DNA of 62,746 nucleotides, taken from IMG/VR virus record IMGVR_UViG_3300046311_000202; one strand, written 5' to 3'. This stretch comes from a virus. Its lineage: Duplodnaviria; Heunggongvirae; Uroviricota; Caudoviricetes. Both the position numbers and the translations under genes were made by a program. The notes under the pieces are model-generated. The model saw only the letters and a list, made by a program, of their open reading frames with translations, was not told the origin of the DNA and did no database searches. Position 1 is the stretch's first letter, and every line of letters begins with the position of its first letter. Shown in pieces: positions 8,198-53,603 of this stretch.

Positions 8198-8458
8198 TTA
8201 GTAAGACATCAAAAGGTTTGTCTCGTGAGTTAATACTAATTTATGCTCCTCTGTCTCTTCTACCACCTCGGCAATAACACCATTAAACAGTACTTGACTA
8301 TTTAATAGGTTATGCAAAGATTCGTGACAGTCATCTGCTTTATCAACAAGGTATACTTTTGGTTTATCTTGCTCTTCACCGAATAACTCGGCTTCCTTTA
8401 ATACTTCTACTTTTAGTAGAACTCTTTGAAATAGTGGTTTCATATTATAGTCCGGCAC
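8198..8458 (-). CDS. groES: Divergent GroES-like co-chaperonin
   Basis: MKPLFQRVLLKV resembles the GroES N-terminus; ~86 aa; overlaps the groEL stop. Confidence 0.55.
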   Translation of the reverse strand: MPDYNMKPLFQRVLLKVEVLKEAELFGEEQDKPKVYLVDKADDCHESLHNLLNSQVLFNGVIAEVVEETEEHKLVLTHETNLLMSY

Positions 8459-31281: not shown

Positions 31282-31638
31282 GGAGAAACTACCACCACAT
31301 CTAGTGCACCTGTACACAATGTTATAACTAGTGCACAAGTATACAACAATGCTTTAATGTCAGCATGGCCTTCTCCAAATGAAGGAACTGTATGTACAGA
31401 CGGATTCTATCCAAATAGCATAAGTATACAATTAGTAGGTGGAGACAACGTATGTAATGCGACAGCAGCAATAATTACAAACTTAGAACAATTCCAAACA
31501 ACTATTAATCACACAATAGCAGTTGGAGAAAATGTACAAGTACTTGCTTCTGACGGAGTTCAAAATACATTTAGAAACTTTGCATATAACGGAGATGGTT
31601 ATATGACAGCAAGTTCACAATGTAATACGTGTCAATAA
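31282..31638 (+). CDS. In-frame extension of 29572..31281 (readthrough segment; ORF track calls 31357..31638)
   Basis: Same frame, 25 sense codons between the TGA and ATG 31357; Thr linker continues across the stop. Confidence 0.6.
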   Translation, partial: GETTTTSSAPVHNVITSAQVYNNALMSAWPSPNEGTVCTDGFYPNSISIQLVGGDNVCNATAAIITNLEQFQTTINHTIAVGENVQVLASDGVQNTFRNFAYNGDGYMTASSQCNTCQ

Positions 31639-31654
31639 TAAATTAAACTTAAAT

Positions 31655-39300: not shown

Positions 39301-40477
39301 TTCTGGATATCCAACACACTCTAGTTCTGTATTAAGGCTAGAGGCCTCTGATTCTATAAAAACATATGGGATACTTTATAATAATGAAAGTGTAAGATCT
39401 CCTGTATTTTACGATTCAAATAACACGGGTTATTACGTAGATCCTAGCTCAATAAGCTATTTAAGTTCATTAAGAATATCTGATGCATCAAGTGGAGCTT
39501 CGTTAATAGTCGGAACAAATGATACTTCAAGAGTATATAGTGATGACCCTAGAAAGCAATTAGCGGTTAATGCTGATTACTACCCTTGTTTATACGTAAA
39601 TGCTCTATCAAATAATGGTAATACAACACATGGGGCCGTAATATCTATGTCTGGTAACTTAAACAGCGGAGGTTATAGAAGATGGGGTATGGGTATTGCT
39701 AATACAAACCCTGGAGTATTTAGTATAGGTTATGCTGATAATAATAGTAATCCACACTATGGAGTTGGGGGTAGTGGATGGTCTCAATTTTGGATAGGAA
39801 CTGGAGGGGATGTATATGCTACTGATTCTTTTAGGTCCCCTATCTTCTATGATTCTAACAATACAGGAAGATATGTAGATCCAGCAGGAACTTCTTCTGT
39901 AGCTGATATATCACTAAACGGTGCTATATACTTCCCAGGATCAGGTACGACAGTAAGAATACAGGAATCTTACGGAGTATTGGTTAACTGTATAAGTACT
40001 CCTTGGAACTTCCAAGTTATAAATGGATCATCATTAGTAGGACTTAGTGCTAGTGGAGGAAACTATGGAATAGGTAATGGGTATTTTACAGGAGATGTAA
40101 CAGCATACTACTCAGATAGAAGATTGAAGCACAATTTAGTTTCAATTGATAATGCAGTAGAGAAGGTAAAATCATTAAACGGATATACTTATCAACACAA
40201 TGAGTTAGGTCAAGAGTTATTAAACGAAAACGCTTATAAAGTACATGCTGGGTTAATCGCTCAAGAAGTACAAGCAGTACTACCAGAAGTAGTAACAATT
40301 GCTCCTTTTGACTTAGATGGATATGATGAGCAAGGAAATGGAATAAGTAAAAGCGGAGAAAATTATCTAACAATTAAGTATGAAAGAATTGTACCTTTGC
40401 TTATAGAAGCAATAAAAGAACAACAAACTCAAATAGAAGAACTAAAACAATTAATAAACCAATTAACAAATAAGTAA
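36320..40477 (+). CDS. Long tail fibre with C-terminal S74 intramolecular chaperone
   Basis: YSDRRLKHN...YERIVPLLIEAIKEQQ..IEELK; internal FYDSxNTxYYxxP repeats. Confidence 0.85.
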   Translation: MSQKIYSNLDIKGNATIGDITNATSDTDKFLVSDAGVVKYRTGSEMLSDLGVAPGVASNIQHQVKAGVAINKGQAVYVTGADGTNMIVGLASNAAEVSSSKTMGLMASTVAINGFGNVIAEGLLAGLNTSTANAGDPVWLGTGGNLIYGIVNKPYAPSHLVFIGIVTRSNTNNGEIFVKVQNGFELDELHDADLKTTTPINGHILGYNGTLWVNKTIAGWLGYTPANANGTANYISKFTGATTLGNSLIYDNGTNILIGTTTDDNYAKLKISGGAISIGNNQQFISYRADGLPLSIFKVNTSNQLVFNPSWGQAVTGYSFTTSGSEKLGVSSGGSVTASGDMRAPIFYDSDNTAYYLNPADSSNLYDITANKFVKSGGTSAQILAADGSVITAGSGITISGGTISSTGGTFTETDTLATVTGRGNTTTSNITVGSLIIPSFETATNVLSFRSGIPDGTNVGIRAKAIVTANRDALELLGYNGIDFTTNNGATVAMRISINGNIHVGGSSSSYKFHVAGGQYGTYLKGGDLGTGSDILRLVDASNNTKYLARGDGKHFFTGDTEVSGALTVSGTLTASGYNKTNWDTAFGWGNHASAGYLTSETNTFLGDGGNADTHPGTDRIIFTGQISTGAALLGMPATDNSNAILNINRHPGEYNSQLGFSSNGSMYYRSFSATAINSSQAWRQVWDSGNFTNNSTNWNTAYSWGNHASAGYVPQARTITINGTSYDLSANRSWTVSGTDSTKWPLEGSWKPASLASSTRLRGATSPDGGEFALAYSGGQIHPYADGFFYQNEGAYRVMDSNSIGDYTVGNYRTIADYSSDSTWYMRPNGRFVFANAHDWTQTFELYLPSGGSNNNTWAHFGQRQSNATNGNFTGVSIRRYISGASNLGDLQAGNVYGRIFYDDDNTGYYLNPASTSNLSGLTVANTISGSVSGSAASAFSMPYDGNAISGMGPISTWDSRPGVGMAGFGINWHTGVSISGYPGYGGVRLYASGYPTHSSSVLRLEASDSIKTYGILYNNESVRSPVFYDSNNTGYYVDPSSISYLSSLRISDASSGASLIVGTNDTSRVYSDDPRKQLAVNADYYPCLYVNALSNNGNTTHGAVISMSGNLNSGGYRRWGMGIANTNPGVFSIGYADNNSNPHYGVGGSGWSQFWIGTGGDVYATDSFRSPIFYDSNNTGRYVDPAGTSSVADISLNGAIYFPGSGTTVRIQESYGVLVNCISTPWNFQVINGSSLVGLSASGGNYGIGNGYFTGDVTAYYSDRRLKHNLVSIDNAVEKVKSLNGYTYQHNELGQELLNENAYKVHAGLIAQEVQAVLPEVVTIAPFDLDGYDEQGNGISKSGENYLTIKYERIVPLLIEAIKEQQTQIEELKQLINQLTNK

Positions 40478-40478
40478 A

Positions 40479-40847
40479 ATGGCAATCACTTACACATTTT
40501 TAACAGATAACACGATGAAACTGGAGATAGCTCCAGAACTAAATGGATTAGAAAAAGTAATTACTAGAGTAAGATACAACTACGTTGGAGTAGATGAAGA
40601 AGGTAATGAAGGTACTTTTGCAGGGGTAACACCAATGCCAGCACCTAACACTGAAAGTTATAAACCTTTTGAAGAACTAACTCCAGAAGATGTAACTGCA
40701 TGGTTAGAAGCTACAGCTGACAAACCCCATATGCAAGAGCGTATAGCAAAACAGATAGAAGCTAAGATAACACCTAAGTATGTTGAAACAACATCACCAT
40801 GGGCTCCACCAGTTGAAGAAGAAGTAACTATTGAACCAACACCTTAA
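40479..40847 (+). CDS. Small fibre-associated protein
   Basis: Follows the fibre; YKPFEELTPEDVTAWL motif. Confidence 0.55.
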   Translation: MAITYTFLTDNTMKLEIAPELNGLEKVITRVRYNYVGVDEEGNEGTFAGVTPMPAPNTESYKPFEELTPEDVTAWLEATADKPHMQERIAKQIEAKITPKYVETTSPWAPPVEEEVTIEPTP

Positions 40848-40858
40848 AAAAATAACAA

Positions 40859-41392
40859 ATGGGATTTATAGTAAAACAACCAATAGAGACATTTGAAGGT
40901 AATCATTTAGAGGAGTTCTATGTAAGAATAGAACATTATCAATTAGATAAACTAAGAGGTACTATTGGTGTGTCATTCGCACATTATGAATCTACAGAAG
41001 CTGCTAATGCAAACTTCCCTAAATATTTAGAAGATACACCAAACCCTTACGGGAGAGTTGCTACAACAATGACATACAACGGAGAGACTAAAGAGTATCC
41101 AATGTGGTATTCTTTTAACATACACACTCCGGAAGTTATAGTAGAGCACTACCCAGTATCTAAGTGGCACTCAGAGATGGTTGACTACATAGATTTTGAT
41201 GAAGACGGTAACGAGATAGTTAAGCAAAAAGAAGAATGGTTTGAAACTATCACAACAGAAACTAGAGAAATAACAAAGACACTTTTAGACATAGGATCTA
41301 TTACAGGTAGTATATACGACTTCTGCTATAGCAAACTGAAAGAGGTGTATAGTGAAATGTTTGGAAGCGAAAACATAATAGATATATTATAA
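40859..41392 (+). CDS. Hypothetical protein (177 aa)
   Basis: Packed in the tail module. Confidence 0.65.
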   Translation: MGFIVKQPIETFEGNHLEEFYVRIEHYQLDKLRGTIGVSFAHYESTEAANANFPKYLEDTPNPYGRVATTMTYNGETKEYPMWYSFNIHTPEVIVEHYPVSKWHSEMVDYIDFDEDGNEIVKQKEEWFETITTETREITKTLLDIGSITGSIYDFCYSKLKEVYSEMFGSENIIDIL

Positions 41393-41850
41393 TGGGAAGA
41401 GTAGCAATGTCGGCCAACAATAGAGGACTAATATCAACTTTTGGTCAATACACCAACAGGACATCTAGTAGCTTCAGTGGTATTTTTGGTTCTGCAACTT
41501 ACCCAAATCGTGCATTAAGTAGTTTGAATATAAACTATTACGGAGGAGCTCCAAGTGTATATGTGTATTGGGTTAATATAGCCTCTAGTAATTCAACAAA
41601 AGGATCTGTATCTATAACTTATCCATGGAGCGAAACCTCTTCAGGGACAGGTCTTATAGGACACAATAGACAATCATTTTCAGGAGCATATAACTACATA
41701 AGCATTCAATGCAATGTTACATACGGATACAGTTTTAAAGGGTGGTATACACTACCTTCAGGGGGAACACTAATCACAAGTGCTAACAATGTAAATATAT
41801 ATCCGACAGATGGTTATATAAGCACAGTATGGTATGCACAATTTTACTAG
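41392..41850 (+). CDS. Hypothetical beta-rich protein with InlB-B-repeat-like C-terminus
   Basis: GYSFKGWYT..SGG...YAQF pattern. Confidence 0.5.
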   Translation: MGRVAMSANNRGLISTFGQYTNRTSSSFSGIFGSATYPNRALSSLNINYYGGAPSVYVYWVNIASSNSTKGSVSITYPWSETSSGTGLIGHNRQSFSGAYNYISIQCNVTYGYSFKGWYTLPSGGTLITSANNVNIYPTDGYISTVWYAQFY

Positions 41851-41853
41851 TTT

Positions 41854-42741
41854 ATGGAATCAATTTGGGTTTTAGAAAATGTAAAGGGGGATGAAACATT
41901 TTATAGCAAATTAGAGTTACTTATATTAGTAGCATCTATTTCTTTATGGAGGAAGCATCATCCAGCACACAAAACAGTTTTGTACTGTGATGGAATGACA
42001 AATAATGTATTATCTAAGCTAGGTGTTATTAATTTGTGGAATGAGGTAAGACATTTATCTTATCCAGAAAAAATAAATAGAAAAGTGTTTTGGTCAAGCT
42101 GTAAAACAAAAGTTATAAGCAACACTAAGATACCATTAGTAATAGTAGATCATGATTTTTTAATCTATACAAATATAGATGAACATTTAAAAGATGAGCT
42201 AGTATTTACATACAATGAAAAATCAAACAACTGGTACCCAAAGGAAAACAACAAAGCTAATAGAGCTCTTTCAAAACCTATAGAGTACGTAAATGATTTA
42301 GCAGCTAATGTAAGTTTATTTTATTTACCGGACCCTGAATTTGCTAGAGAATACGCAAACCAGACTTTACAAAATCACATAGAGATATCAGCAATGGACA
42401 TCCATGACTTATCTGCAAACTATATGATACTATCTGAGCAATTAATGCTCAAACAATGGTTAAGTAAAAGAGAGATACCACATAAGGCTCTATGTAGAAA
42501 TATTTGGGATTGCAAAAGTATAAAGTACACGTTAGATGAAGTAGACAACGGTATTTGGGGACACAGAGAAATAGAAAAGTACTGTAAGCATTATGGGTTA
42601 GATAAAACTCGTATTAAGGAAAATCAGGAAGGGTTTGATTACAATCAAGAGATAGAATTTCTATACAGATGTATTAAATCGACAAAGCTACAAAACGTAG
42701 AGGAGCTGAAACAGAAAATAGAAGTTATACAAAATGTATAA
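41854..42741 (+). CDS. GT-A-like putative glycosyltransferase (DUF6734-like)
   Basis: VLYCD...FWSSCK...LVIVDHDFLI DxD motif; paralog of the next gene. Confidence 0.55.
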   Translation: MESIWVLENVKGDETFYSKLELLILVASISLWRKHHPAHKTVLYCDGMTNNVLSKLGVINLWNEVRHLSYPEKINRKVFWSSCKTKVISNTKIPLVIVDHDFLIYTNIDEHLKDELVFTYNEKSNNWYPKENNKANRALSKPIEYVNDLAANVSLFYLPDPEFAREYANQTLQNHIEISAMDIHDLSANYMILSEQLMLKQWLSKREIPHKALCRNIWDCKSIKYTLDEVDNGIWGHREIEKYCKHYGLDKTRIKENQEGFDYNQEIEFLYRCIKSTKLQNVEELKQKIEVIQNV

Positions 42742-42743
42742 TT

Positions 42744-43727
42744 ATGAAAGCGATACATGTAAATTGGACAGCACCTTTCTTTAACAAAGAAAGACTTAGA
42801 GGTCACGGGTTTGATACCACAAGAAATATTACCTCTAGCACTTATGACATACCTGATTACCAATTACTGTATATAATACTGTCAGCACTAAGATGGAAGT
42901 TACACAATGGGCCTATCAAACTTTACACAGATTCTATAGGTTTAAGTGCATACAAGATGTGGGGATTACTTAGTCTGTATGATGAAGTAGACACTGATTT
43001 TTTAGACAACTTAAAAGAAGTAGATGCTGCATATTTTTGGACTAGTGGTAAGATACAAGCTTTACAAAATGAAAAAGAACCATTTGTATTTCTAGATCAA
43101 GACTTTATAATAAGAGGAAAGATACCTCAGAAGTTCTACGAAAATGATTTAGGAATAGGACACTGGGAAATACCAAGAGGTTACTATTACTTTAGAGAGC
43201 AAGATTGGAAAAAAGAAATAAAGCATATTGATTTTCCTAAGGATTACAATGTAAATGCATATTCACCAAACACATCTTTTTTGTATTTTAATAATAAAGA
43301 TATAGTAAACGAATATGTAAGCTGGCACAAGAAGCTAATAAAGACAGAAGGACAAGAAGTACCGGAATGGTTTTGGTTAGCAACTGATCAAGGAATACTA
43401 GGACATGTTATTAGAGAGGGGAACTATAATACAAACACTCTAACAGACAAAGTATTTCTTGCAGATAGTGATTACGGTAACAAAGGTACAAGGTATAAAG
43501 GCTTATCTGAGCAATGGTACTACCCACAAGGAGCCGACTTGAACAAAGGGCTATTAGAATGGGAACATGTATGGTTAGCAAAAGTGGTGTTTAAGTCAGA
43601 CAAAGATTTTGAAAAAGCAGAATGCCAAAGATACTACGATGAGATACATAGTTTAGGAGGAAAAAATTACTTATACAATCTTAGGCTTTTTAAATATTGG
43701 AACGAAGAGAAACATGGCGATAGATAA
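42744..43727 (+). CDS. GT-A-like putative glycosyltransferase (DUF6734-like)
   Basis: KLYTDSIG...FWTSGKI...EPFVFLDQDFII...NTSFLYF. Confidence 0.6.
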   Translation: MKAIHVNWTAPFFNKERLRGHGFDTTRNITSSTYDIPDYQLLYIILSALRWKLHNGPIKLYTDSIGLSAYKMWGLLSLYDEVDTDFLDNLKEVDAAYFWTSGKIQALQNEKEPFVFLDQDFIIRGKIPQKFYENDLGIGHWEIPRGYYYFREQDWKKEIKHIDFPKDYNVNAYSPNTSFLYFNNKDIVNEYVSWHKKLIKTEGQEVPEWFWLATDQGILGHVIREGNYNTNTLTDKVFLADSDYGNKGTRYKGLSEQWYYPQGADLNKGLLEWEHVWLAKVVFKSDKDFEKAECQRYYDEIHSLGGKNYLYNLRLFKYWNEEKHGDR

Positions 43728-44520
43728 TAAGATACCAATAGTAAGAGCTTTATGGGGTAACCAAGAAAGAACACTATCAGAAGTGCCACCTAAACCACTA
43801 TTCAAAAACGAAACAGTAATTGTATGGGGGTCGAATAACAAAAAGTATTTAGAAGCATTAGGATACAATGTAAAATGTTTATCTATAGAAGATACTGATA
43901 AAAAGTATTCAACACTACATAAGCATTACATGCATAAACTAGAAGCTATAAAGGTAGCAGGAGTTTTGCACAAAGAGTATATTTTTTTAGATTGGGACTG
44001 TTTTCCACTAAGACCTTTTGATAGTAATTTTTACAACCACTTGCAAAAAGGAAACGAAGTACAAATACCAATATATGCTTACCCTGATAAAGAAGGACTA
44101 GGTATAATTGATATGATAGACGAGAGCACACCATGGGGTCCTTTACAACTAACGGACAACTTAAAAGAATACGTTAAGTCACATGAAGACCAGTTGAGAA
44201 AATACAGCTGGAAACATAATGAAATGTTAGTAAGCCCTAATTTTGGGTTTGTGTATTCTAGAAGAAGCAGCTTAGGCAAAGAGTTGATTGATATAGCAGA
44301 TAGCAATAACGTATTGAATTGTATAGAAGAACATTCATTTTATATCTGGGCCAATTGCACATTAGATGAATACATAAATAAGTATGAACCTAAAGTATTA
44401 CAAGGTACATCAGATGACGTAAGAATATACAACAAAGATTCAAAACAAGATGCTGTAATAAAAATAAACAAGTATGTCAACGCAATAGCAAAAAAAGACA
44501 TATACTTAAAACACATCTAG
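43714..44520 (+). CDS. GT-A-like putative glycosyltransferase
   Basis: HKLEAI...EYIFLDWDCFP DxD motif. Confidence 0.55.
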   Translation: MAIDNKIPIVRALWGNQERTLSEVPPKPLFKNETVIVWGSNNKKYLEALGYNVKCLSIEDTDKKYSTLHKHYMHKLEAIKVAGVLHKEYIFLDWDCFPLRPFDSNFYNHLQKGNEVQIPIYAYPDKEGLGIIDMIDESTPWGPLQLTDNLKEYVKSHEDQLRKYSWKHNEMLVSPNFGFVYSRRSSLGKELIDIADSNNVLNCIEEHSFYIWANCTLDEYINKYEPKVLQGTSDDVRIYNKDSKQDAVIKINKYVNAIAKKDIYLKHI

Positions 44521-44521
44521 G

Positions 44522-45229
44522 ATGCATTTTAAAAAACCTCTTATAGAGACACAAGATGAACACATCTTTCAATTAGCACCAATACCAGTATACCAGAGAG
44601 TTTACGAAGATGTGTTGACTGATAAAGTATACAAGCTAGGATTAGAGACTCTTACAGATACTCAAAAGAGAATGGGGCAAGAGTTACCAAAGCAGTATGA
44701 TACAGAAAGACAAGGTCATTATGATATTAATTACGATAGACAAGATCAGTGGGTAGAAGACCACGAATTTCCTCCAATAGGAAGTAGGTTCTACACACCA
44801 CCAAATAACTTCTTAGATAATCCCGATGAGGATGTACAAGTTATAAGAAGAAGAATAGAGGGAGGGTTTTTACAACTACTAAAAGCAATGCAGCTAGAAG
44901 TAGAAGGTAAGCCAATCATAACAGAAAGTTGGTTACAGTACTATGATCCATTCTCAGGAAGAGGGCATAATGCACATAACCATTGCAGATGGCACCATGA
45001 AGAAGCTAAGCCAATCATGTTTTCGGGAGGCTACTACTTATCTGATGGCGAACCTATACAAGATCACCCATATAGCGGAGTATTTGCTTTTCATGTCAGA
45101 GGAATGAAATATTATATAAGACCTAAAAAAGGCATGCTGATTATTTGGCCTTATGATATAATACACTCAGTGGAACCATTTTATGGTAAAGAACATAGAG
45201 CAGTGATTAATTTTAATATACAAGTTTAG
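44522..45229 (+). CDS. 2OG-Fe(II) oxygenase (2OG-FeII_Oxy_5/TIGR02466-like)
   Basis: HNAHNH...SGGYY...GMLIIWPYDIIHSVEP...RAVINFN. Confidence 0.8.
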   Translation: MHFKKPLIETQDEHIFQLAPIPVYQRVYEDVLTDKVYKLGLETLTDTQKRMGQELPKQYDTERQGHYDINYDRQDQWVEDHEFPPIGSRFYTPPNNFLDNPDEDVQVIRRRIEGGFLQLLKAMQLEVEGKPIITESWLQYYDPFSGRGHNAHNHCRWHHEEAKPIMFSGGYYLSDGEPIQDHPYSGVFAFHVRGMKYYIRPKKGMLIIWPYDIIHSVEPFYGKEHRAVINFNIQV

Positions 45230-45259
45230 TAAAAAAACAAATAACACATATATATCAAA

Positions 45260-45394
45260 ATGGCAAAAATCAAAAACGAAACTACAAAATTAGAAAAGAA
45301 AAAAGTAAGTCGACCTGGCATACATGCTAAGTCTAAAACTTCACTATCTAAAAATTCAAAAAATTATAAAAAACTAAATAGAGGACAAGGATGA
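45260..45394 (+). CDS. 44-aa highly basic peptide (not in ORF track)
   Basis: MAKIKNETTKLEKKKVSRPGIHAKSKTSLSKNSKNYKKLNRGQG; ATGA overlap with the next gene. Confidence 0.7.
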   Translation: MAKIKNETTKLEKKKVSRPGIHAKSKTSLSKNSKNYKKLNRGQG

Positions 45395-45828
45395 AAAATT
45401 GCGGAAACAAAATCAAAAACATGTGTGGAGAAAAAACTTATGCCACATGTACTTATTACGAACTAGAGGTACCAACATTTTCTAGCCTAGTAGGACAAGA
45501 CTGTATTACCATAGAGGAAACAACAGAAGACTTATATGACCTAGTTTCAGGAATAAAGTCAGAGATTGATTTGTCAGCTCTTGGAGACTTGTGCCTTACT
45601 TATGTTCAAGAAGATAATAAAAACATTGTAAAAAATGTATTAATTAAGTATGAAGAGGAAATATGTTCACTAAAACAAAGAGTGGAGTACTTAGAGAATG
45701 AAGCAATATGCGACAAAATCATAACAGAGTGCTTAGACCTTTCTGGATTAGTAGACCAATGTAATTCCCCTATAAATACTTTAGGAGAACTTCTTCAATA
45801 TTTATTAGACAACACACAAACACCTTAA
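45391..45828 (+). CDS. Cys-rich/coiled-coil structural protein
   Basis: Cys-rich N-terminal domain shared with the next three genes. Confidence 0.6.
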   Translation: MKNCGNKIKNMCGEKTYATCTYYELEVPTFSSLVGQDCITIEETTEDLYDLVSGIKSEIDLSALGDLCLTYVQEDNKNIVKNVLIKYEEEICSLKQRVEYLENEAICDKIITECLDLSGLVDQCNSPINTLGELLQYLLDNTQTP

Positions 45829-45832
45829 TACT

Positions 45833-46150
45833 ATGGGAACATGCAGTCAAATGACCACTCCGGTTATAGTACAACAAGAAGATCCATGTAATGGACTACA
45901 CACTTCAACAGATTGTGTTGTACACACGGAGCCAATAACATATCTTTTTATAGAGGATAATCAAAACTTGACCTCTATCATACAAGCAATAGTTTTATCT
46001 TTGCAAAGTAACAATACTGGAGTTACACAACTACAAGAAGAGAATGCACAACAAGCAATTCAAATAACAAATCTTCAAGAACAAGTAACTCAAATACAAG
46101 AAGTAATCTTTGATATACAAGCTATCTTAGCTACTTGTTGTCCAGAATAA
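45833..46150 (+). CDS. Cys-rich/coiled-coil structural protein
   Basis: DPC...STDCV...coiled coil...CCPE. Confidence 0.6.
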   Translation: MGTCSQMTTPVIVQQEDPCNGLHTSTDCVVHTEPITYLFIEDNQNLTSIIQAIVLSLQSNNTGVTQLQEENAQQAIQITNLQEQVTQIQEVIFDIQAILATCCPE

Positions 46151-46180
46151 AAATAATATTAAAAAAACCTAGAAGTAACC

Positions 46181-47395
46181 ATGGAAGGATGTAATCAAAC
46201 AAATATACCAATTTTAAATACACAAGAGGATCCCTGCATTCAGGGGTCCTTACTAACAAATTGTATCTTTTATGGTCTAGCAATAGAATACTTAGGTACA
46301 CAAAATACTGCAAGTTTAGCAGTGATATTAGAATACATAGTTAGAAGTCTTGTAGCAGCTAATTCAGATATAGTAGCTTTAGAAGAAGAAAACAGAGACC
46401 AACAACTTCTTATAGAACAGTTGCAAGTAGCTTTAGAACAAAGCTTAGTAACACTAGAAGTTATACAATCACAAGTAGAAGCTTGTTGTCCTACAACCAC
46501 TACAACTACTACTACTCCTATTACCACTAGTACAACAACTACAGATCCATTTTATTACTATGTAGCTAATCAGTATGCATGCCCAAATTGTGATTATGTT
46601 GTTGGCACTAATGTGATAATAAAAACGGTAACACCTTTATCTATTGGGGATTGGGTACCCCGTGCTATTAACGGTAATATCTTTTTCTTTAATATACTAT
46701 CTTCATCAGCACCTTTCTATATGGCAACATTAGTTGATGCTGGAGGAGCCTCTCAAAGCTGTGGTTGCCCAGGCACAACAAGTACAACAACTAGTACAAC
46801 AACCAATATGATAAATCCTACGTTATATTCTCGTATAATGGATAACCCAGTAGGAACAGCACTTTATAACATAGATGGACCAGAAGCAGGTAAGTATTGG
46901 ACAGTTGCATATGACTATAGCCAATACACACATATACCAAACGGTCAATTCTTAGGTGTAGGTACAACAATTTACATGGATCAACAATGTACACAACAAT
47001 GGACTTTTCCTTTAAAATATCTAATTGCAAACGTACCAGATCAATATAACATAAACCCATATACATGGATTTGGAAAGTAGAAAATGGTGTTATTACAGA
47101 TAACATAGGCCGGTTTGTAGATACTGCACGTTATCTCTTACACTCTACAAAAGTTAGAAATGAGTTATTACCTTGTAGCGAATTTTATCTAAATGGTATA
47201 ACCTTAGATACTGGTCACACTTCTTTGATGCCTGGGGTTAGTGTATACAGTGCAACAGTAGATACAAATCAACCAATACCATTGAATTACACTTATTTAA
47301 CAGATAACGTAAACGTATACACAGTTTCTAATGGTGTCATAACATCATCACAACCATGTAGCGGTATAACAACTAGCACAACAACAATATTATAA
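46181..47395 (+). CDS. Mucin-like Thr-rich fibre/decoration protein
   Basis: Paralogous Cys/coiled-coil N-terminus, then Thr-rich linkers between small Cys-containing domains. Confidence 0.65.
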   Translation: MEGCNQTNIPILNTQEDPCIQGSLLTNCIFYGLAIEYLGTQNTASLAVILEYIVRSLVAANSDIVALEEENRDQQLLIEQLQVALEQSLVTLEVIQSQVEACCPTTTTTTTTPITTSTTTTDPFYYYVANQYACPNCDYVVGTNVIIKTVTPLSIGDWVPRAINGNIFFFNILSSSAPFYMATLVDAGGASQSCGCPGTTSTTTSTTTNMINPTLYSRIMDNPVGTALYNIDGPEAGKYWTVAYDYSQYTHIPNGQFLGVGTTIYMDQQCTQQWTFPLKYLIANVPDQYNINPYTWIWKVENGVITDNIGRFVDTARYLLHSTKVRNELLPCSEFYLNGITLDTGHTSLMPGVSVYSATVDTNQPIPLNYTYLTDNVNVYTVSNGVITSSQPCSGITTSTTTIL

Positions 47396-47416
47396 ACAAA
47401 TAAAAAATAAATAAAA

Positions 47417-48514
47417 ATGTGTAACTGCGGAAGAACAACGAATACAATATGTACATCATCATGTCAAACAGTTGATTGTGCTTGTCCAATTAAAGACTTA
47501 AGCACAGATTGTGTACTTTATACAGGTGAGGATTTACCTTGCACTGAAATAAAAACAGGAACGCTTTTAACAGAAGCCTTTGGTCAATTAGACACATACC
47601 TTTGTGATTTATCAAATCAATTAGCAAACTCTTTCAGTTTAATAAGTGTTGGTCAAGGAACTAGAGTATATAAAGGAGTAGATGGAATTGGTAGAAAAGA
47701 GATTAGATCTATTACACCATCAAACACTATTATAACAGTAGATTTGTCAACAGACGATAAAGAAATAGAAATAGGACTAGATGTAGTAATACTAAAAGAC
47801 TTTATACAAGATAACCAGATAACATACTCTGCATCAAATGTAGGTACAGGAGCTGGTGTATACAAAAATGCAATTAGAACTGGAGACAATGTAAACTTAA
47901 GCTTTAAAAGACTAAAATCTCAAAATGGTACAATAACTATTACAGAAGAGGCAAACGAAATAGATTTTGCAGTATCAGTAGATGGAAGCGAAACAAAAGT
48001 TACAGCAGGTACAGCAATATCTGTTTCAGGAACTGGTACAATAGCTTCTCCTTATGTAGTAACAAATACAGCACCAGACCAAGTAGTTGCAATAGCAGGT
48101 TCAGGGGCTACAACAGTTAGCGGATCTTATCCTAACTTCACTGTTAGCTCAACTGACACTGATACAACATACTCAGCAGGACTGGGCTTGTATTTATCAG
48201 GTACAACCTTTGGAGTAAGAAACTTACAAAAAGTTATTACCGGAGACTATACCTTAACAAATGGCGATGTAGAACATACAATATTTATAGATAATGGAAC
48301 TTCACCTGTAACAATTACAGTACCTGCAGGATTATCAATAGGCTTTGAAGTGGGTTTTGTACAAGAAGGTACAGGATTAGTTACATTTGTTGCCTCAGGC
48401 ACTACAATAAACACCGCTACAGGGCTTAAAATAAAAGGGCAAAACTATCAAGCTTTTCTTGAAAAGAAACTTTCATCAGAAACTTTTTATTTACTAGGTA
48501 ATGTAATAGCATAA
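47417..48514 (+). CDS. Fibre-like structural protein with C-terminal adaptor domain
   Basis: STDCVLYTGEDLPC N-terminus; fibre-type repeats. Confidence 0.65.
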   Translation: MCNCGRTTNTICTSSCQTVDCACPIKDLSTDCVLYTGEDLPCTEIKTGTLLTEAFGQLDTYLCDLSNQLANSFSLISVGQGTRVYKGVDGIGRKEIRSITPSNTIITVDLSTDDKEIEIGLDVVILKDFIQDNQITYSASNVGTGAGVYKNAIRTGDNVNLSFKRLKSQNGTITITEEANEIDFAVSVDGSETKVTAGTAISVSGTGTIASPYVVTNTAPDQVVAIAGSGATTVSGSYPNFTVSSTDTDTTYSAGLGLYLSGTTFGVRNLQKVITGDYTLTNGDVEHTIFIDNGTSPVTITVPAGLSIGFEVGFVQEGTGLVTFVASGTTINTATGLKIKGQNYQAFLEKKLSSETFYLLGNVIA

Positions 48515-48516
48515 CT

Positions 48517-49743
48517 ATGAAAAATTTCAAAAGAAATATATACAGATTATCTGAGGAAATACCTGCTACTACGACTACTAGTACTACTAGTACAACTAGT
48601 ACGACAACTGTACCACCTACAACAACCACAACTAGTACAACGACTACAACAACTAGTACTACAACTAGCACAACTACGGCTGCACCAGCTTCTATTTACA
48701 TAGCAACAGGTACACCAATTTGTAGATCAACAGGAAATTGTAATGATAATGCAACATGTGGTATCATATTCCCAGTTAATATAACAGGAGCACCTGTTGG
48801 TTACTACGTAGAAGCATCTACAGTTGCATCTTCAGGAGCTACAGCAATGTATACACCAACACAAGTAGAGTATACAGAGACGAATGCATCTGGAACAGTT
48901 ACTATAAGATTAGAGTTGTATGATTATTTTGGAGGTACAATGATTGCTCTTACTGAGCAAACAATAACTCACCAAGCATCATATCCATTTGTAATAGCTT
49001 GTTCAGGTAATACAACCACTACTACGACTAGTACAACAACAGCTGCACCTACGACTACTACAACTAGTACAACAACAGCTGCACCTACGACTACTACAAC
49101 TAGTACAACAACAGCTGCACCTACGACTACTACAACTAGTACAACAACAACCACAGCTCCACCTGCACAATGCCTTGAGTACTTATTAGGCACAAATACA
49201 AATGGAGGAGCTAATTATACAGATTGTGGAGGAAACCCTCAATCAATTAGCATAGGAGGTACAAGCGGTTATGACTCTACAACGTTCTGTGCTTTAGACG
49301 GTACCGTAGTGACTAATGGTGATGCAACCTTGAATGTAACAGGAGTATGTCCAGAAGAGACTACAACTACAACAACTACAACAACTAGTACAACAACAGC
49401 TGCACCAAGCCAAGGAAACATAAGTGTTTATAACTTAAATTCTCCAGGTGCTAATGCATATTTGAACAATGTACAAGTAGATGGAACAGATATTATAGTA
49501 CCACTAGGCACTTTCCCACTTTCACCAGGAGCATCAGCAATAGGTGTATATGCCGGAACATCTTTTTCTACAATAGTAGTATTCTCTTCTCATGGAGCAG
49601 ATACTCCAGTAAGAGTATCAACATCTGCAGGATATAGCCAATGTCAAGTAAGCAGTGGTTATGTAGAGTTTACGGGAGTAGATTTATCTACAGATCCATC
49701 AATAAGTGTAACTCTTGATCAAGAAGGCTCAGGTTGTATTTAA
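48517..49743 (+). CDS. Mucin-like Thr-rich multidomain protein
   Basis: Three long TTTTSTTT(AAP) tracts separating three small domains. Confidence 0.7.
   Translation: MKNFKRNIYRLSEEIPATTTTSTTSTTSTTTVPPTTTTTSTTTTTTSTTTSTTTAAPASIYIATGTPICRSTGNCNDNATCGIIFPVNITGAPVGYYVEASTVASSGATAMYTPTQVEYTETNASGTVTIRLELYDYFGGTMIALTEQTITHQASYPFVIACSGNTTTTTTSTTTAAPTTTTTSTTTAAPTTTTTSTTTAAPTTTTTSTTTTTAPPAQCLEYLLGTNTNGGANYTDCGGNPQSISIGGTSGYDSTTFCALDGTVVTNGDATLNVTGVCPEETTTTTTTTTSTTTAAPSQGNISVYNLNSPGANAYLNNVQVDGTDIIVPLGTFPLSPGASAIGVYAGTSFSTIVVFSSHGADTPVRVSTSAGYSQCQVSSGYVEFTGVDLSTDPSISVTLDQEGSGCI
49027..49149 (+). repeat. 36-bp tandem repeat (~3.4 copies) encoding TTTTTSTTTAAP
   Basis: Unit ACGACTACTACAACTAGTACAACAACAGCTGCACCT repeated exactly. 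Confidence 0.9.
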
Positions 49744-49760
49744 TAAATAAATAAATAAAA

Positions 49761-50444
49761 ATGAAAGTACTAATATTTACCCCCTCACATTTCAAGAGGG
49801 GGGCAATGTTAAGATACACTTTACTAGATGTACTTAACCAAACATATAAAGATTTTACATTTGCACTAAGTCTTAAAATTGATGACTTTCAACAAGTTTT
49901 TAATAATGTATTGATAGATGATATAAAAGATCCAAGAGTAGTTTATACAGAGCAGATAAACCACAAAGTTTGCTTCACTCACTATAATGCTATGGACACT
50001 ATAAAATCAGTACCTAATTATCAAGATTATGATTTATTCATAAAGATGGATGACGATGATATCTATAAAAAAGATTATATAAAAAACTTAGTAGACTTTT
50101 TTAAAAGTAACCCAGATGCAGACATTGCCTCTTCTAAAGTAGGAACACAGTTAAATGGGTTCACAGTTATAAAAAATAAGAGTGGTTATACTACCTTAGG
50201 AAGAATATCTAAAGAGGATAACTCACACATGCCTATGACTTTTGCCTTTACTAAAAAAGCATTAGATCAAATTATTAATTTGACAAGAAAAGAATTAGGA
50301 AATGATTGGGAAGATGTAGCTTGGAGAAAGGCATGGATGAAAGCTGGTCTTATTCACAAGGAAATAGACAATGCAGATCAAACTATTTGGAATGTGCATG
50401 GTAAAAATACCACTACTAATAATTATTTAATAAAAAGAAATTAA
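49761..50444 (+). CDS. Glycosyltransferase family 2
   Basis: IFTP...VLNQTYKDF...FIKMDDDDIY. Confidence 0.8.
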   Translation: MKVLIFTPSHFKRGAMLRYTLLDVLNQTYKDFTFALSLKIDDFQQVFNNVLIDDIKDPRVVYTEQINHKVCFTHYNAMDTIKSVPNYQDYDLFIKMDDDDIYKKDYIKNLVDFFKSNPDADIASSKVGTQLNGFTVIKNKSGYTTLGRISKEDNSHMPMTFAFTKKALDQIINLTRKELGNDWEDVAWRKAWMKAGLIHKEIDNADQTIWNVHGKNTTTNNYLIKRN

Positions 50445-50449
50445 TAGTT

Positions 50450-51373
50450 ATGAGATACATATGTGCACAACCAGCCAGCAATTATTATACCTGGCAAGTA
50501 GAAGTACTTATAAACAACTTCAAAAAGCATGGGGTAAACCCTAATAAAATTGACATTCTTTGTGCAACACAAAATAATCACATACCACAAGATTGGATAA
50601 AACTACAACAGCATTATAACACAGTAAGATTCTTTTTCTATAATGATAGTAGGGCAGATAAGAGCTATGTACCATCAGTGTACTTCAACCTTATGAGCAG
50701 TCACATGAAAGCTCACCCAGAATTAAAAGAAGAGAGATTATTTTTACACGATAGTGATATAGTTTTTACAAGACCACCGGAAGTTCAATGGGTAGTAGAT
50801 AAGAAAATATGGTACATGAGTGATACAAACTCATACATAAACTACGACTACATACAACAGAAAGGGAACGAGGTATACGAAAGCATGTGCGAAATAGTAG
50901 GTATAGATAAAACAATACCTAAGCTAATGAATAGTAATTCAGGAGGGGCACAGTATATAATAATTGGTGAGGGATATGAATTTTGGGAAAAAGTAGAAAA
51001 AGACAGTGTAGAACTATACAAATACTTTTGCAAACAAGAACCATTACATGTAAAAAAACACCCTGCTGATTACCCTATACAAAAGTGGACAGCCGGCATG
51101 TGGTCATTACTTTGGAACGCTTGGCTAAGTGGTCATGAGACAAAGGTAGATCCTAGACTTGACTTTGGATGGACCATACATGGTTTAGAGTCCATTGATA
51201 AATATTGGATATTACATAATGCAGGTGTTGGACCAGATCATAAAGATCTTTTTTACAAGGCCGCTTATATAAATAAACTACCTTACAAAGATAACTTACA
51301 AATAAGAGAGAATAGTGCTAGTATGTATTACTGGCAACAAGTACAAGAAGCCGCAAAGGTTTCTGTACTATAA
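50450..51373 (+). CDS. Glycosyltransferase resembling plant peptidyl-Ser/Hyp O-glycosyltransferases (GT96/GT95-like)
   Basis: YYTWQVEVLINNF N-terminal motif, LFLHDSDIVF DxD, WTAGMWSLLW, ILHNAG. Confidence 0.55.
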   Translation: MRYICAQPASNYYTWQVEVLINNFKKHGVNPNKIDILCATQNNHIPQDWIKLQQHYNTVRFFFYNDSRADKSYVPSVYFNLMSSHMKAHPELKEERLFLHDSDIVFTRPPEVQWVVDKKIWYMSDTNSYINYDYIQQKGNEVYESMCEIVGIDKTIPKLMNSNSGGAQYIIIGEGYEFWEKVEKDSVELYKYFCKQEPLHVKKHPADYPIQKWTAGMWSLLWNAWLSGHETKVDPRLDFGWTIHGLESIDKYWILHNAGVGPDHKDLFYKAAYINKLPYKDNLQIRENSASMYYWQQVQEAAKVSVL

Positions 51374-51377
51374 CGAT

Positions 51378-51404
51378 AAGAGGTTTTTGGTTTTCCTCTT
51401 TTTT
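51378..51404 (+). terminator. Intrinsic terminator 1
   Basis: AAGAGG...CCTCTT + T-tract. Confidence 0.6.
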
Positions 51405-51414
51405 CTGTTGGGTG

Positions 51415-51443
51415 AGGGGGGGCTTCGGCCCCTCTTCTTTTTT
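51415..51443 (+). terminator. Intrinsic terminator 2 (cUUCGg)
   Basis: GAGGGG-GGC-TTCG-GCC-CCTC + T-rich tail. Confidence 0.75.
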
Positions 51444-51453
51444 AAAATCTTTA

Positions 51454-51490
51454 ACTAATTTGGTAAACACAAAAAATTTTACTAATTTTG
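51454..51490 (+). promoter_or_regulatory. Tandem ACTAATTT(T/G)G late promoter (27-bp period)
   Basis: Copies at 51454 and 51481. Confidence 0.65.
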
Positions 51491-51510
51491 TAACCTTAAA
51501 ACATATAAAA

Positions 51511-52179
51511 GTGACTAATTCAGAATTTACATCAAGAGTACTAAATGGACTAAATTCGTTATCTAAGGATGACAGGATTTCACGTAGATATATACTTCAT
51601 GTTGGAAAACAAAAATCAACATTTTATATATCACAAAAGCTTAATGACAGGAGTTTATTTAGAGAAGATAACCTATATACAACACTAGATTGTTTTGAGC
51701 TAGAAAGAATAGAATCAGTAAAATGTGATATCATAGAGTTTAGAAAGTGTAACTCTATAATGAAGTCAAAAAAGAAACTACCTAAACTTATTTACAGCAG
51801 ATACGGTAACACTCTTAAAGAGGTTACAACAGTTGACGATGTAAAAGAGTTTAAATCTACTACACCATCACAGTATAGAAGAGATAAAGCTAGGGTTTCT
51901 GGAACAGACTACATAAACTACTACGTAAAAGACGGCTATCTATACTTATTAGATACAGAAATACAAATTGTAAACTTATACCTACTTACAGTAGACCTAG
52001 ACCAAATAGATGATGCATCAGCATGCAGCGAACCAGGATGTAAAAGCCTATGGGAATATGATTTTGTAGTCCCAGATAAGTTAGAAGAGCTAATAATATC
52101 AGAGACTGTAAAAGAAGTATCTATGAAAAAACAAGTAGCATTAGACGAAAACCCTAATTTAAACAATAACGAGAAGTAA
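51511..52179 (+). CDS. Ring/connector-like structural protein (likely GTG start 51511)
   Basis: The ORF-track start at 51412 runs through terminators and promoter; GTG follows an A-rich leader. Confidence 0.55.
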   Translation: MTNSEFTSRVLNGLNSLSKDDRISRRYILHVGKQKSTFYISQKLNDRSLFREDNLYTTLDCFELERIESVKCDIIEFRKCNSIMKSKKKLPKLIYSRYGNTLKEVTTVDDVKEFKSTTPSQYRRDKARVSGTDYINYYVKDGYLYLLDTEIQIVNLYLLTVDLDQIDDASACSEPGCKSLWEYDFVVPDKLEELIISETVKEVSMKKQVALDENPNLNNNEK

Positions 52180-52181
52180 GA

Positions 52182-52724
52182 ATGAAGACACCTAGTAAAC
52201 CTTTTACTAAGGAAGCCTTTAGATATATTTTTAGAAGCAGGGGTAGAAAGAAATCTCTTGGTGATCTTGGAAGCAGTTTCTCTTTAAGAGACTACAAAGC
52301 TTATCAATACTACAGAGATAACTCTAAACTTGCAAACCTAGAAGACGTAGAGAATTACATAGAGCACGGAAAGATAGTGTCTAAATTTTACGAGATAGTA
52401 GGTGAAAAAATAGCAGAGTCTTCAGGTGGAGTCTTTGTAGATGGTCTAGGGTATTTTGGGGTAATACAAGAAATGGATAATAAAAGCTCCCACAACCCAG
52501 TTGATGGATCAATAAAGCTAAATCCAAGGACAGACAATAAGATATATAACTTAGCCTTTGTACCTATCGAAACAGACAACATATTTAAACCGTGGGTATT
52601 TGATTATAGCTTTTCTAGGAAAGTTAAGAAAGCCTTGTCTATTAGCTTAAAGGCAGGTAAAAAATATACATTTAACGCATCTCTATTTTTTAATAAACTA
52701 AGAAAACAAGGTAACGACCTGTAA
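52182..52724 (+). CDS. IHF/HU-like protein
   Basis: ...GGVFVDGLGYFGV beta-arm pattern; position as in crAss-like tail modules. Confidence 0.45.
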   Translation: MKTPSKPFTKEAFRYIFRSRGRKKSLGDLGSSFSLRDYKAYQYYRDNSKLANLEDVENYIEHGKIVSKFYEIVGEKIAESSGGVFVDGLGYFGVIQEMDNKSSHNPVDGSIKLNPRTDNKIYNLAFVPIETDNIFKPWVFDYSFSRKVKKALSISLKAGKKYTFNASLFFNKLRKQGNDL

Positions 52725-52739
52725 TAAAAAATATAAGTA

Positions 52740-53603
52740 ATGACTAGAAAGCAACTAATAGCAGAAATACTATCCGACTTAAGACAGTACGATGAATCAG
52801 GTCTTATTGATTATAGATCAGTAAATCTATGGATAAAAAGCGAGCTTAAGAGATTTGGTGCGAACATAACAACTCTTACAGAAAAAGTCTTAGAGGTAGA
52901 AGATGGTAAAGTAGATTTACCGGAAGACTTCTGGAGCTTACACTTAGCTGTAAAATGCACACAGGATAGCCACGAGTTTGAAAAAGGCACAAGACAAGAC
53001 GTGCAAGATTCACAATACTACACACAAAGGATAGAGAATACCTATACTTGGGATAACTTGTCTGGTACACATAAGAAGACAGACTACAAAGAAATAATAG
53101 AAAAGAAATATTATAACAATACTGTTATAAACTTTAGATATACTAATCCAATTATACTAAAGCTTACAAAAGGTATAAAAAAAGAATACTGTAGCCCAGG
53201 CTGCAAAAACTTACAAAGTCAACTAACACACTCTGCAGAACATGAGATAAACATAGTTGGTAATAAGATACAAGCTAACTTCAAGAAGGGGTATATATAC
53301 ATGCAGTATAACGCAATACCATCAGATGAGACCGGTGATCTTTATATCCCAGATGTGGTAAGTTTACAGGAATACCTTATGTACTTTGTAAAAAGAAAGA
53401 TACTAGAAAGTTTATGGATGAATGACGATGATGTCAACTTAATAAACAAACTTACGTATATAAAACAGCAAGAAAGAGAGTACTTTGGACTTGCAATGAC
53501 ACAAGTAAAATTTGAAGGTCTAGGAAGAAATTGGCAGGATAAGTTGAAGATGAAAATGATCCAAGAGACTAATAGATTTGAAAGAATGTTTCCTAATTTA
53601 TAA
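52740..53603 (+). CDS. Tail ring / tubular protein
   Basis: MTRKQLIAEILSDL...VDLPEDF...GYIYMQY..IP...LYIPD pattern. Confidence 0.55.
   Translation: MTRKQLIAEILSDLRQYDESGLIDYRSVNLWIKSELKRFGANITTLTEKVLEVEDGKVDLPEDFWSLHLAVKCTQDSHEFEKGTRQDVQDSQYYTQRIENTYTWDNLSGTHKKTDYKEIIEKKYYNNTVINFRYTNPIILKLTKGIKKEYCSPGCKNLQSQLTHSAEHEINIVGNKIQANFKKGYIYMQYNAIPSDETGDLYIPDVVSLQEYLMYFVKRKILESLWMNDDDVNLINKLTYIKQQEREYFGLAMTQVKFEGLGRNWQDKLKMKMIQETNRFERMFPNL

Follow-up and report, generated by a model that had tools for sequence, protein, structure and literature searches.

Gene content and setting of the block

The IMG/VR virus record IMGVR_UViG_3300046311_000202 (hereafter the window, meaning the whole stretch of 62,746 nucleotides that was analysed) is a large genome fragment of a phage of the class Caudoviricetes. 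A run of genes for candidate glycosyltransferases (GTs), a 2-oxoglutarate (2OG)-Fe(II) oxygenase and threonine-rich proteins lies in its plus-strand late block, which also encodes terminase, portal, capsid protein and a tail fibre of 1385 amino acids (aa). A previous sequence-only reading of the window had grouped five GTs and the oxygenase with the mucin-like genes among them as one system for the O-glycosylation of virion proteins. All of the open reading frames (ORFs) that it had claimed are present on the plus strand (Table 1, where genes are named by the position at which they start), but the block is made up of two independent modules (Module A, 40479-45229; Module B, 45391-51373) and not of one six-enzyme system.

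Downstream of the block lie crAss-type tail ring proteins (PF25702 and PF24228), followed by a 2193-aa virion protein, and the adjoining R2 and R1 ring genes place the locus in the tail module. The crAss-like label given to the phage earlier is acceptable in a broad sense, with CrAss_Ring_1 and CrAss_Ring_2 encoded just downstream, but among cultured phages it is closest to Cellulophaga phages phi4:1 and phi17:2, with whose capsid protein its own shares 47% identity. The equivalent slot of phi4:1 holds only fibre and pectate-lyase genes with no GT annotation, and the 9.5-kb block gave no match by megablast to any of 50,697 phage records. The best explanation is that a phage resembling Cellulophaga phi4:1, and distantly crAss-like, carries both modules as insertions in its variable tail-fibre region.

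Table 1. Features of the two modules and of their flanks in the window.
Feature	Coordinates	Strand	Basis
Tail fibre, 1385 aa, with C-terminal Peptidase_S74 intramolecular chaperone; gene preceding Module A	36320..40477	+	PF13884 E 2e-15; tail-fibre PHROGs
Three small Module A genes: 40479 (DUF7936), 40859 and 41392 (Ser-rich, beta-rich)	40479..41850	+	PF25590 E 3e-14; precede the enzyme genes in many loci
Module A enzyme 1 (41854), DUF6734-like paralogue, putative GT-A glycosyltransferase, VDHDF motif	41854..42741	+	BLASTP, hhalign
Module A enzyme 2 (42744), DUF6734 (PF20508), putative GT-A glycosyltransferase, LDQDF motif	42744..43727	+	PF20508, 44 bits
Module A enzyme 3 (43714), separate family, predicted GT-A-like fold (GT8/GT6/Nucleotid_trans-like), LDWDC motif	43714..44520	+	Atlas structure neighbours
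Module A 2OG-Fe(II) oxygenase (44522), PF13759/P4H-like	44522..45229	+	PF13759, phrog_81, fold matches
Lys-rich small ORF of 44 codons between the two modules	45261..45395	+	read from the sequence
Two small Cys-containing genes, 45391 and 45833	45391..46150	+	homology to phi4:1 gp054; paralogy to 46181
Poly-Thr protein T1 (46181), 404 aa, proposed glycan acceptor	46181..47395	+	tract scan
Fibre-like virion protein (47417), Cys-rich N-terminus	47417..48514	+	phi4:1 gp046/gp047; phrog_18179
Poly-Thr protein T2 (48517), 408 aa, proposed main glycan acceptor	48517..49743	+	tract scan
GT2-family glycosyltransferase (49761), DDDD motif, proposed glycan extender	49761..50444	+	PF00535
SGT1/HPAT-like GT-A glycosyltransferase (50450), phrog_4417, 307 aa, proposed poly-Thr O-glycosylation initiator	50450..51373	+	fold, motif, linkage
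End of transcription unit: weak hairpin, then strong GC-rich terminator with T-run	51379..51443	+	
CrAss-type tail ring proteins R2 (probably from TTG 51460) and R1 (52740)	51460..53603	+	PF25702 E 2e-25; PF24228 E 1e-17

The 50450 enzyme family and poly-Thr proteins

Long poly-Thr/Ser tracts had been noticed in 46181 and 48517 from the sequence alone, and our scan confirmed them in these two ORFs only, out of 70 in the window. The 46181 protein (T1) has an N-terminal anchor and a coiled coil, followed by globular parts linked by Thr runs (residues 105-121 and 197-208, plus TTSTTT at the C-terminus). The 48517 protein (T2) is built as beads on a string with five Thr/Ser tracts, one of which reads (TTTTTSTTTAAP)x3.7; at the nucleotide level, one tract is a 36-nt tandem repeat of 3.7 copies at 98% identity. 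Tracts in the window and in other loci often end in xxP.

Linkage between such tracts and the 50450 gene was scored in 80 IMG/VR loci carrying the best-scoring relatives of 50450 (44-97% identity), in which ORFs were called and searched for poly-Thr/Ser tracts. The ORF directly upstream of the 50450 homologue, on the same strand, bears a tract in 57 of 79 loci, compared with 16/74 and 8/61 for the ORFs two and three positions upstream and 3/416 for those downstream, and at least one tract-bearing ORF is found in 68 of the 80 loci (Fisher p = 6e-42 for the linkage). When the upstream proteins were de-replicated, 21 of 33 clusters were tract-positive. In control loci, namely those of Module A described below, tracts occurred in 4 of 598 ORFs (~0.7%), and chance adjacency of poly-Thr genes was rejected on this rate. 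Seven further phages, six of them cultured and one an uncultured contig (G006), were all tract-positive. The cultured phages are Enterococcus phage phiFL1A (tract at the C-terminus of the annotated major tail protein), Clostridium phage phiCTP1 (gp18), Staphylococcus phage PMBT8 (tract in the annotated major tail protein), Lacticaseibacillus phage R3.3 (tract at the C-terminus of the ORF following a scaffold-like gene), Lactobacillus phage Semele and Chryseobacterium phage MA9V-3. In four of these (phiFL1A, PMBT8, phiCTP1 and R3.3) the gene immediately preceding that of the enzyme encodes an annotated or placed major tail or capsid protein with a C-terminal poly-Thr tag, and in phiFL1A the gene order is major tail protein, 50450 family, tail chaperones. 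The part of the phi4:1 structural region that was read contains no 50450 homologue and no poly-Thr tract, and none of the 75 phage records that 50450 matches is a Cellulophaga phage. Taken together, these comparisons are strong evidence, of a genomic kind, that the 50450 family would act on poly-Thr tags of virion proteins.

The proteins that carry the tracts have few names of their own. A Pfam scan of 43 poly-Thr upstream proteins returned Phage_tail_2 in two, SprB in one and Gly_rich_2 in one, so that their structural role is mostly positional. The sequence-only reading had called the Thr-rich genes of the window structural, and this can be upheld only by way of their neighbours: phi4:1 gp054, the homologue of 45391, and phi4:1 gp046 and gp047, both homologous to the Cys-rich N-terminus of 47417, are virion proteins verified by mass spectrometry. 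The C-terminus of 47417 matches phrog_18179, a virion structural protein family, and 45833 is a paralogue of the N-terminal Cys and coiled-coil part of 46181.

The 50450 family comprises 823 representative clusters at 50% identity, and at least 594 IMG/VR viral contigs encode a relative. The AlphaFold2 (AF2) model of 50450 has a predicted local distance difference test score (pLDDT) of 88.9. Its eight top Foldseek matches in Swiss-Prot, ranking above GT8, are SGT1 (GT96) and HPAT1-3, RDN, PLENTY and NOD3 (GT95), with template modelling (TM) scores of 0.61-0.68, and the best of them is the Ser-specific SGT1. Atlas clusters with 99-100% PF23452 HPAT members match the model at TM 0.74-0.76, and clusters of fusions between PqqD (peptide-binding) and HPAT match it at TM 0.72-0.73; in some near Atlas clusters PF23452 is found in merely 10% of members. 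Among the solved structures of the PDB, its fold neighbours are GT-A enzymes with protein or glycoprotein substrates, for example UGGT, glycogenin and the Skp1 alpha-galactosyltransferase. The predicted fold thereby agrees with the earlier description of 50450 as a look-alike of plant-type protein O-GTs. A DxD motif (H100-D101-S-D103) follows a beta strand; all of 33 homologues (30-80% identity) share D103, and at least 90% of them share D101. The protein has no N-terminal hydrophobic segment or membrane anchor, strand 1 of the fold beginning at residues 2-8. Because it does not match the family sequence model and has no membrane anchor, we do not file it as a member of GT95 or GT96. Sequence searches of PDB chains, with single proteins and with profiles of 50450, the oxygenase, the GT2, DUF6734 and 43714, returned nothing usable.

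Members of the 50450 family are fused to GT2, GT6, GT25, DXD-GT, GT7C, methyltransferase and radical-SAM domains; P0123, P0007, P0089 and P0146, for instance, are homologues fused to radical-SAM/SPASM or SAM-methyltransferase domains. HPAT-like domains of Pseudomonadota are fused to PqqD, a peptide-binding recognition element of ribosomally synthesized and post-translationally modified peptides (RiPPs). The PqqD-HPAT, radical-SAM and methyltransferase fusions hint at peptide glycosylation beyond phages.

Two explanations of the linkage that involve no glycosylation of the tracts should be weighed against this evidence. According to the first, the poly-Thr tracts are unmodified flexible linkers and the GTs act on host envelope polysaccharide or lipopolysaccharide, on a nucleotide sugar or on phage DNA bases. 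Thr-rich linkers are indeed common in Bacteroidota proteins, a point in its favour. Phage GTs are also best known for DNA glucosylation and serotype conversion (PMC12619734). However, the adjacency of 50450 homologues and poly-Thr genes is directional and immediate across unrelated phages and host phyla, far above background, and the nearest folds of 50450 are protein O-glycosyltransferases. Furthermore, the genes belong to late structural operons, where they are flanked by fibre and ring genes; in Gram-positive siphoviruses the flanking genes of the 50450 homologue are those of the major tail protein and the tail chaperones; and the oxygenase gives no TET/JBP or AlkB signal. We therefore regard plain linkers as quite unlikely. 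The second explanation holds that the 50450 family binds or modifies poly-Thr as an assembly factor or a non-glycosyl modifier, for example as a chaperone of disordered linkers or by the transfer of another nucleotide-activated group. The family is unannotated and below Pfam thresholds, and methyltransferase or radical-SAM domains are found fused to some of its members, all of which would suit such a role. Yet the DxD motif is conserved within a GT-A fold, the fusions are mostly to bona fide GT families and a GT2 gene is adjacent in this window, which makes a non-glycosyl role very unlikely.

The neighbouring gene 49761 had been assigned to GT2 from its sequence, and the assignment holds: PF00535 matches residues 91-163 at 26.4 bits (cutoff 23.3), and the motif reads KMDDDDIY. 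A homologue of this GT2 accompanies 50450 in 11 of 88 fetched loci carrying a 50450 homologue, representing this lineage and three contigs that are more distant. In relatives at 91% identity the succession of poly-Thr gene (392 aa, equivalent to 48517), GT2 and 50450 is retained, and none of the four Module A enzyme genes is present. In L093 and L094, which come from nearly the same phage, the enzymes are 97-100% identical, T1 has 308 aa as opposed to 404, T2 is 87% identical and there is an extra ORF of 250 aa. The two contigs differ from the window in their proposed acceptor genes, and the Thr-rich genes therefore change faster than the enzymes.

The most likely role of 50450 is the O-glycosylation of poly-Thr tags on virion proteins, and the reading that 50450 together with 49761 glycosylates poly-Thr is well supported. 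In such a pathway, soluble cytoplasmic 50450 would recognise the extended poly-Thr tracts of 46181 and 48517 and would put the first sugar on their Thr/Ser hydroxyls, using a nucleotide sugar held at the DxD site. The adjacent GT2 49761 would add a further sugar, extending the glycan, and the decorated fibre-like proteins would then be built into the virion, near the tail. Hydroxyproline would not be needed in Module B.

Module A as a separate, mobile cassette

The earlier idea that three paralogous GT-A-like genes stand at the start of the block is correct for two of them. The 41854 and 42744 proteins are paralogues (BLASTP E 8e-12): 42744 is a member of DUF6734 (PF20508, cutoff 27 bits), and 41854 is tied to DUF6734 by hhalign only (probability 99%, E 2.8e-18). 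The 43714 protein has no detectable relation to either by sequence or profile, and hhalign linked its family neither to DUF6734 nor to the 50450 family. On these negatives we no longer treat the three genes as paralogues, and what 43714 shares with the other two is a GT-A-like shape by prediction. Its Atlas model (predicted TM score 0.69, pLDDT 0.62) matches DUF6734, GT8, GT6 and Nucleotid_trans clusters at TM ~0.6, and an Atlas feature search with 42744 produced only weak GT8 leads. A hydrophobic-DxD motif is kept in all three proteins: D99 and D101 are invariant in 41854, D118 and D120 in 25 homologues of 42744, and D93, W94 and D95 in 43714, which is present in one to three copies in other phages. 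From the conserved DxD and the weak structural leads, DUF6734 may be a family of GT-A glycosyltransferases.

The fourth enzyme, 44522, is a 2OG-Fe(II) oxygenase, as had been read from its sequence, with matches to phrog_81 (E 1.4e-16) and PF13759 (27.3 bits, cutoff 27) and a double-stranded beta-helix model. Its nearest folds are those of prolyl hydroxylases (the prolyl 4-hydroxylase (P4H) of P. putida, PHD2, the P4H of B. anthracis, PBCV-1 vCPH and P3H1), of uncharacterised PF13759 proteins and of some sugar-acting oxygenases; 3bvc and 2rg4 are also among the fold matches. The distal residues H215 and R226 are invariant, as is D181-H182. A role in DNA modification was considered and rejected: 44522 matches neither PF12851 nor the AlkB family, and no TET/JBP or AlkB protein is among its top 50 PDB or top 30 Swiss-Prot folds.

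Module A was surveyed in 40 loci fetched with a DUF6734 query. The order of its three small genes (40479, 40859 and 41392) and four enzyme genes is conserved in ~35 of the 40, T4-like myoviruses included, and the oxygenase is the best-conserved gene, with 58-86% identity between phages. Approximately 24 loci have Module A behind an S74-terminated fibre, and in five of these (L111, L113, L114, L117 and L118) the preceding fibre is a long collagen-like (G-P/A-T/K/Q)n protein, its G-X-Y repeats having Pro or Ala at X and Thr, Lys or Gln at Y. Variants of Module A add GT25 and radical-SAM/SPASM genes. A GT25 gene occurs in all five collagen-fibre loci and also in eight loci with no collagen-like fibre in view (coordinates listed with this observation are L104:7127-7996 and L114:11552-12145). 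The combination of collagen-like fibre and GT25 resembles, by analogy, the galactosylation of collagen hydroxylysine or glycosylation of the BclA type.

The distribution of Module A is independent of that of Module B. In 79 of the 80 loci examined above, no counterpart of 41854, 42744, 43714 or 44522 was found within 6 kb of the 50450 homologue, and the one locus that differs is on a contig of the same phage. In Module A loci the frequency of poly-Thr ORFs does not rise above background, and two complete genomes that carry Module A have no member of the 50450 family and no run of eight Thr codons. The sequence-only reading had looked to the co-occurrence of the GT block with Thr-rich ORFs and had named independent distribution as the contrary outcome; the 50450 family is linked to such ORFs, whereas the four Module A enzymes are distributed independently of them. 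Hence, what stands of the proposed system is the probable phage O-glycosylation of Thr-rich virion proteins, by virtue of the 50450/poly-Thr linkage, and what is not supported is the union of five GTs and the oxygenase with the mucin-like genes, since Module A is a separate cassette found without the 50450 family.

These distributions also bear on a single pathway for the whole block, in which the oxygenase would hydroxylate Pro in TTTAAP or TTVPP, the HPAT-like enzyme would glycosylate the resulting hydroxyproline and the other four GTs would extend a mucin- or extensin-like glycan. All of the genes lie in one plus-strand unit running up to the terminator, 50450 has an HPAT-like fold, the oxygenase is P4H-like and the tracts often have the xxP ending noted above, each of which would fit such a scheme. 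Nevertheless, the oxygenase and the three GT-A-like genes are missing near 50450 in nearly all loci, the relatives at 91% identity retain the trio of poly-Thr gene, GT2 and 50450 without them, and complete genomes have Module A with neither the 50450 family nor poly-Thr runs. The conserved feature of the acceptors is moreover Thr and not Pro, and the best fold match of 50450 is specific for Ser. An oxygenase that makes hydroxyproline for the HPAT-like enzyme is thus unlikely given that Module A is distributed apart from 50450, and we consider the single pathway as a whole unlikely.

Independence from 50450 and poly-Thr genes, together with the position behind S74 fibres, leads us to read Module A as a separate module modifying the fibre or a fibre accessory. 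Most likely it hydroxylates and glycosylates a virion component different from the poly-Thr proteins, the best candidates being the S74 fibre or the co-travelling small proteins; the products of 40479, 40859 and 41392 could serve as fibre accessories or as substrates. Collagen, mimivirus L230 and Skp1 suggest by analogy that the oxygenase would first hydroxylate a protein associated with the fibre, and that the GT-A-like enzymes would then glycosylate the hydroxylated residue.

The best explanation of the block, and one that we hold to be probable, is that it contains two separate modules, with Module B glycosylating poly-Thr virion proteins and Module A modifying another virion component. Gene content, folds, motifs and genomic linkage are what the analysis establishes, while the acceptor, the sugar, the order of steps and any effect on the virion are inferred. 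It should be noted that a number of observations weigh against this explanation. With respect to Module B, 50450 matches no Pfam family at E <= 1, the HPAT model PF23452 included, so that its link to GT95/GT96 comes from predicted structures. Twelve of the 80 loci have no tract within 6 kb of the 50450 homologue, the loci are phylogenetically non-independent, and in the window itself the proposed main acceptor 48517 is not adjacent to 50450 but lies two genes upstream, with the GT2 gene in between. The presence of T1 and T2 in the virion is deduced from their neighbours and architecture. With respect to Module A, the GT activity suggested for DUF6734 and 43714 derives from motif and predicted fold only, and PDB and NCBIfam sequence searches with both gave nothing above threshold. 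The model of the oxygenase has a moderate pLDDT of 70, and its proximal motif (H149-N-A-H152-N-H154) shows no obvious canonical HxD, with pLDDT <50 at residues 148-153. Finally, both modules are in one operon here, so that in this particular phage the enzymes of Module A may yet contribute to the same glycan.

A broader form of the two-module explanation would extend it to many tailed phages of Bacteroidota, Bacillota and uncultured aquatic lineages, which would share a portable pair made up of a poly-Thr tag on a capsid, tail-tube or fibre protein and an SGT1/HPAT-like initiator encoded directly downstream. A second mobile cassette (PF13759 oxygenase, DUF6734 and GT-A enzymes, in some cases also GT25 and radical SAM) would separately carry out hydroxylation-dependent glycosylation of S74 and collagen-like fibres. 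In our judgement the arguments for and against this generalization are about evenly balanced.

Relation to known glycosylation systems

The closest predicted folds to 50450 (TM 0.61-0.76 over both structure sets) are those of SGT1/SERGT1 (GT96) and of HPAT1-3, RDN1/2, PLENTY and NOD3 (GT95, PF23452). These plant and algal enzymes put the first sugar on hydroxyls of repetitive, extended structural proteins rich in Ser or hydroxyproline, the extensins, and like them 50450 is predicted to have a GT-A fold with a DxD motif. Unlike them, it has no sequence match at the level of Pfam and is 12-14% identical in structural alignments. The GT95/GT96 enzymes have a type II membrane anchor and act in a secretory compartment, whereas the phage enzyme is anchor-free and must act in the bacterial cytoplasm. 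Their acceptors are hydroxyproline or extensin Ser, in contrast to the poly-Thr motif associated with 50450, and a homologue of the window oxygenase is found in 1 of 80 loci. A literature search found no paper describing the 50450 enzyme family or poly-Thr tags in phages, and both appear to be undescribed. If our explanation is correct, the family would be new for protein glycosylation in bacterial viruses and distantly related to the plant extensin enzymes.

Several hydroxylase and GT systems provide the precedent for Module A. In collagen, hydroxylysine receives galactose and glucose through lysyl hydroxylase, the GT25 enzyme COLGALT and LH3, and mimivirus L230 belongs to the same group of systems. 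Cytoplasmic Skp1 carries a pentasaccharide on hydroxyproline, made by the P4H PhyA and GT-A enzymes, and Bacillus BclA is glycosylated on (GPT)n repeats. Module A likewise pairs a 2OG oxygenase of the P4H superfamily with several GT-A-like enzymes, and variants of it have GT25. Five Module A loci follow collagen-like fibres, although the window fibre is not collagen-like and the window has no GT25. The Module A oxygenase further differs from those hydroxylases in belonging to the uncharacterised PF13759 group and in its atypical metal motif. One of the PDB fold neighbours of 50450 is likewise an enzyme of these systems, the Skp1 galactosyltransferase. With reference to Pfam DUF6734 (PF20508), 42744 is above threshold, 41854 is a divergent paralogue and 43714 is not detectably related.

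To our knowledge, the only phages whose virions have been shown by experiment to be glycosylated by enzymes of their own are a few mycobacteriophages, and there the modification changes how antibodies recognise the particle. In the account given in a later article, GTs of mycobacteriophages Che8, Corndog and Myrna glycosylate capsid and tail-tube subunits at their C-termini (Freeman et al. 2023, as cited in PMC12619734). As far as that account goes, two features are shared with the phages studied here: the C-terminal position of the poly-Thr tag on major tail or capsid proteins of phiFL1A, PMBT8, phiCTP1 and R3.3, and the location of GT genes in or beside structural genes (from tail fibre to crAss ring proteins in the window, and in phiFL1A). 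Within the same limits, two differences stand out. The systems described here belong to phages of Bacteroidota and Bacillota, not to actinobacteriophages, and are known from genes alone, and the tags of the window are internal linkers of fibre-like proteins as opposed to C-terminal tails.

Genomic evidence suggests that carriers of the poly-Thr/50450 pair very probably sugar-coat their own particles. If this is true, self-glycosylation is widespread among phages, as the size of the 50450 family would imply, and reaches phages that infect gut, dairy and staphylococcal hosts and are in use, or under consideration, for therapy and food applications. It would have a bearing on immune clearance, mucus adherence, stability and receptor masking, and a minimal soluble enzyme with a short, genetically encodable tag for cytoplasmic O-glycosylation would be of interest for glycoengineering. 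The family would also make it testable how the plant extensin GTs (GT95/GT96) relate to bacterial and viral enzymes. In Module A there are signs of another, so far unexplored type of modification, this one on phage fibres, some of which are collagen-like.

Some minor features of the window may be added. The block had been described as ending at tandem terminators; one of these is strong (51414-51437, with a 10-bp stem, 7 GC pairs and a T-run), whereas the other is a weak 6-bp hairpin (AAGAGG...CCTCTT, ~51379-51401) that was not called by the terminator scan. The mechanically called ORF of ring protein 2 (51412-52179, plus strand) begins at GTG 51412, within the terminator hairpin, and the 239-aa product in related contigs (L002) fits a TTG start at 51460, just past the terminator. 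Between the two modules, the ORF at 45261-45395 (MAKIKNETTKLEKKK...) is absent from the ORF list and overlaps the ATG of 45391 with its stop codon; the related contigs L002 and L003 have a called gene of 44 aa at the equivalent position. The phage also encodes a GroEL-type chaperonin on the minus strand (8445-9983; phrog_5725, E 5e-125). Lastly, the ORF at 29572-31281 ends ...ASVTTTTGA, then TGA, and the frame stays open for ~118 codons (GETTTTSSAPVH...; window 31180-31641, plus strand). The short Thr runs on either side of this stop suggest a possible readthrough extension with a Thr linker, and the readthrough product is a possible third acceptor.

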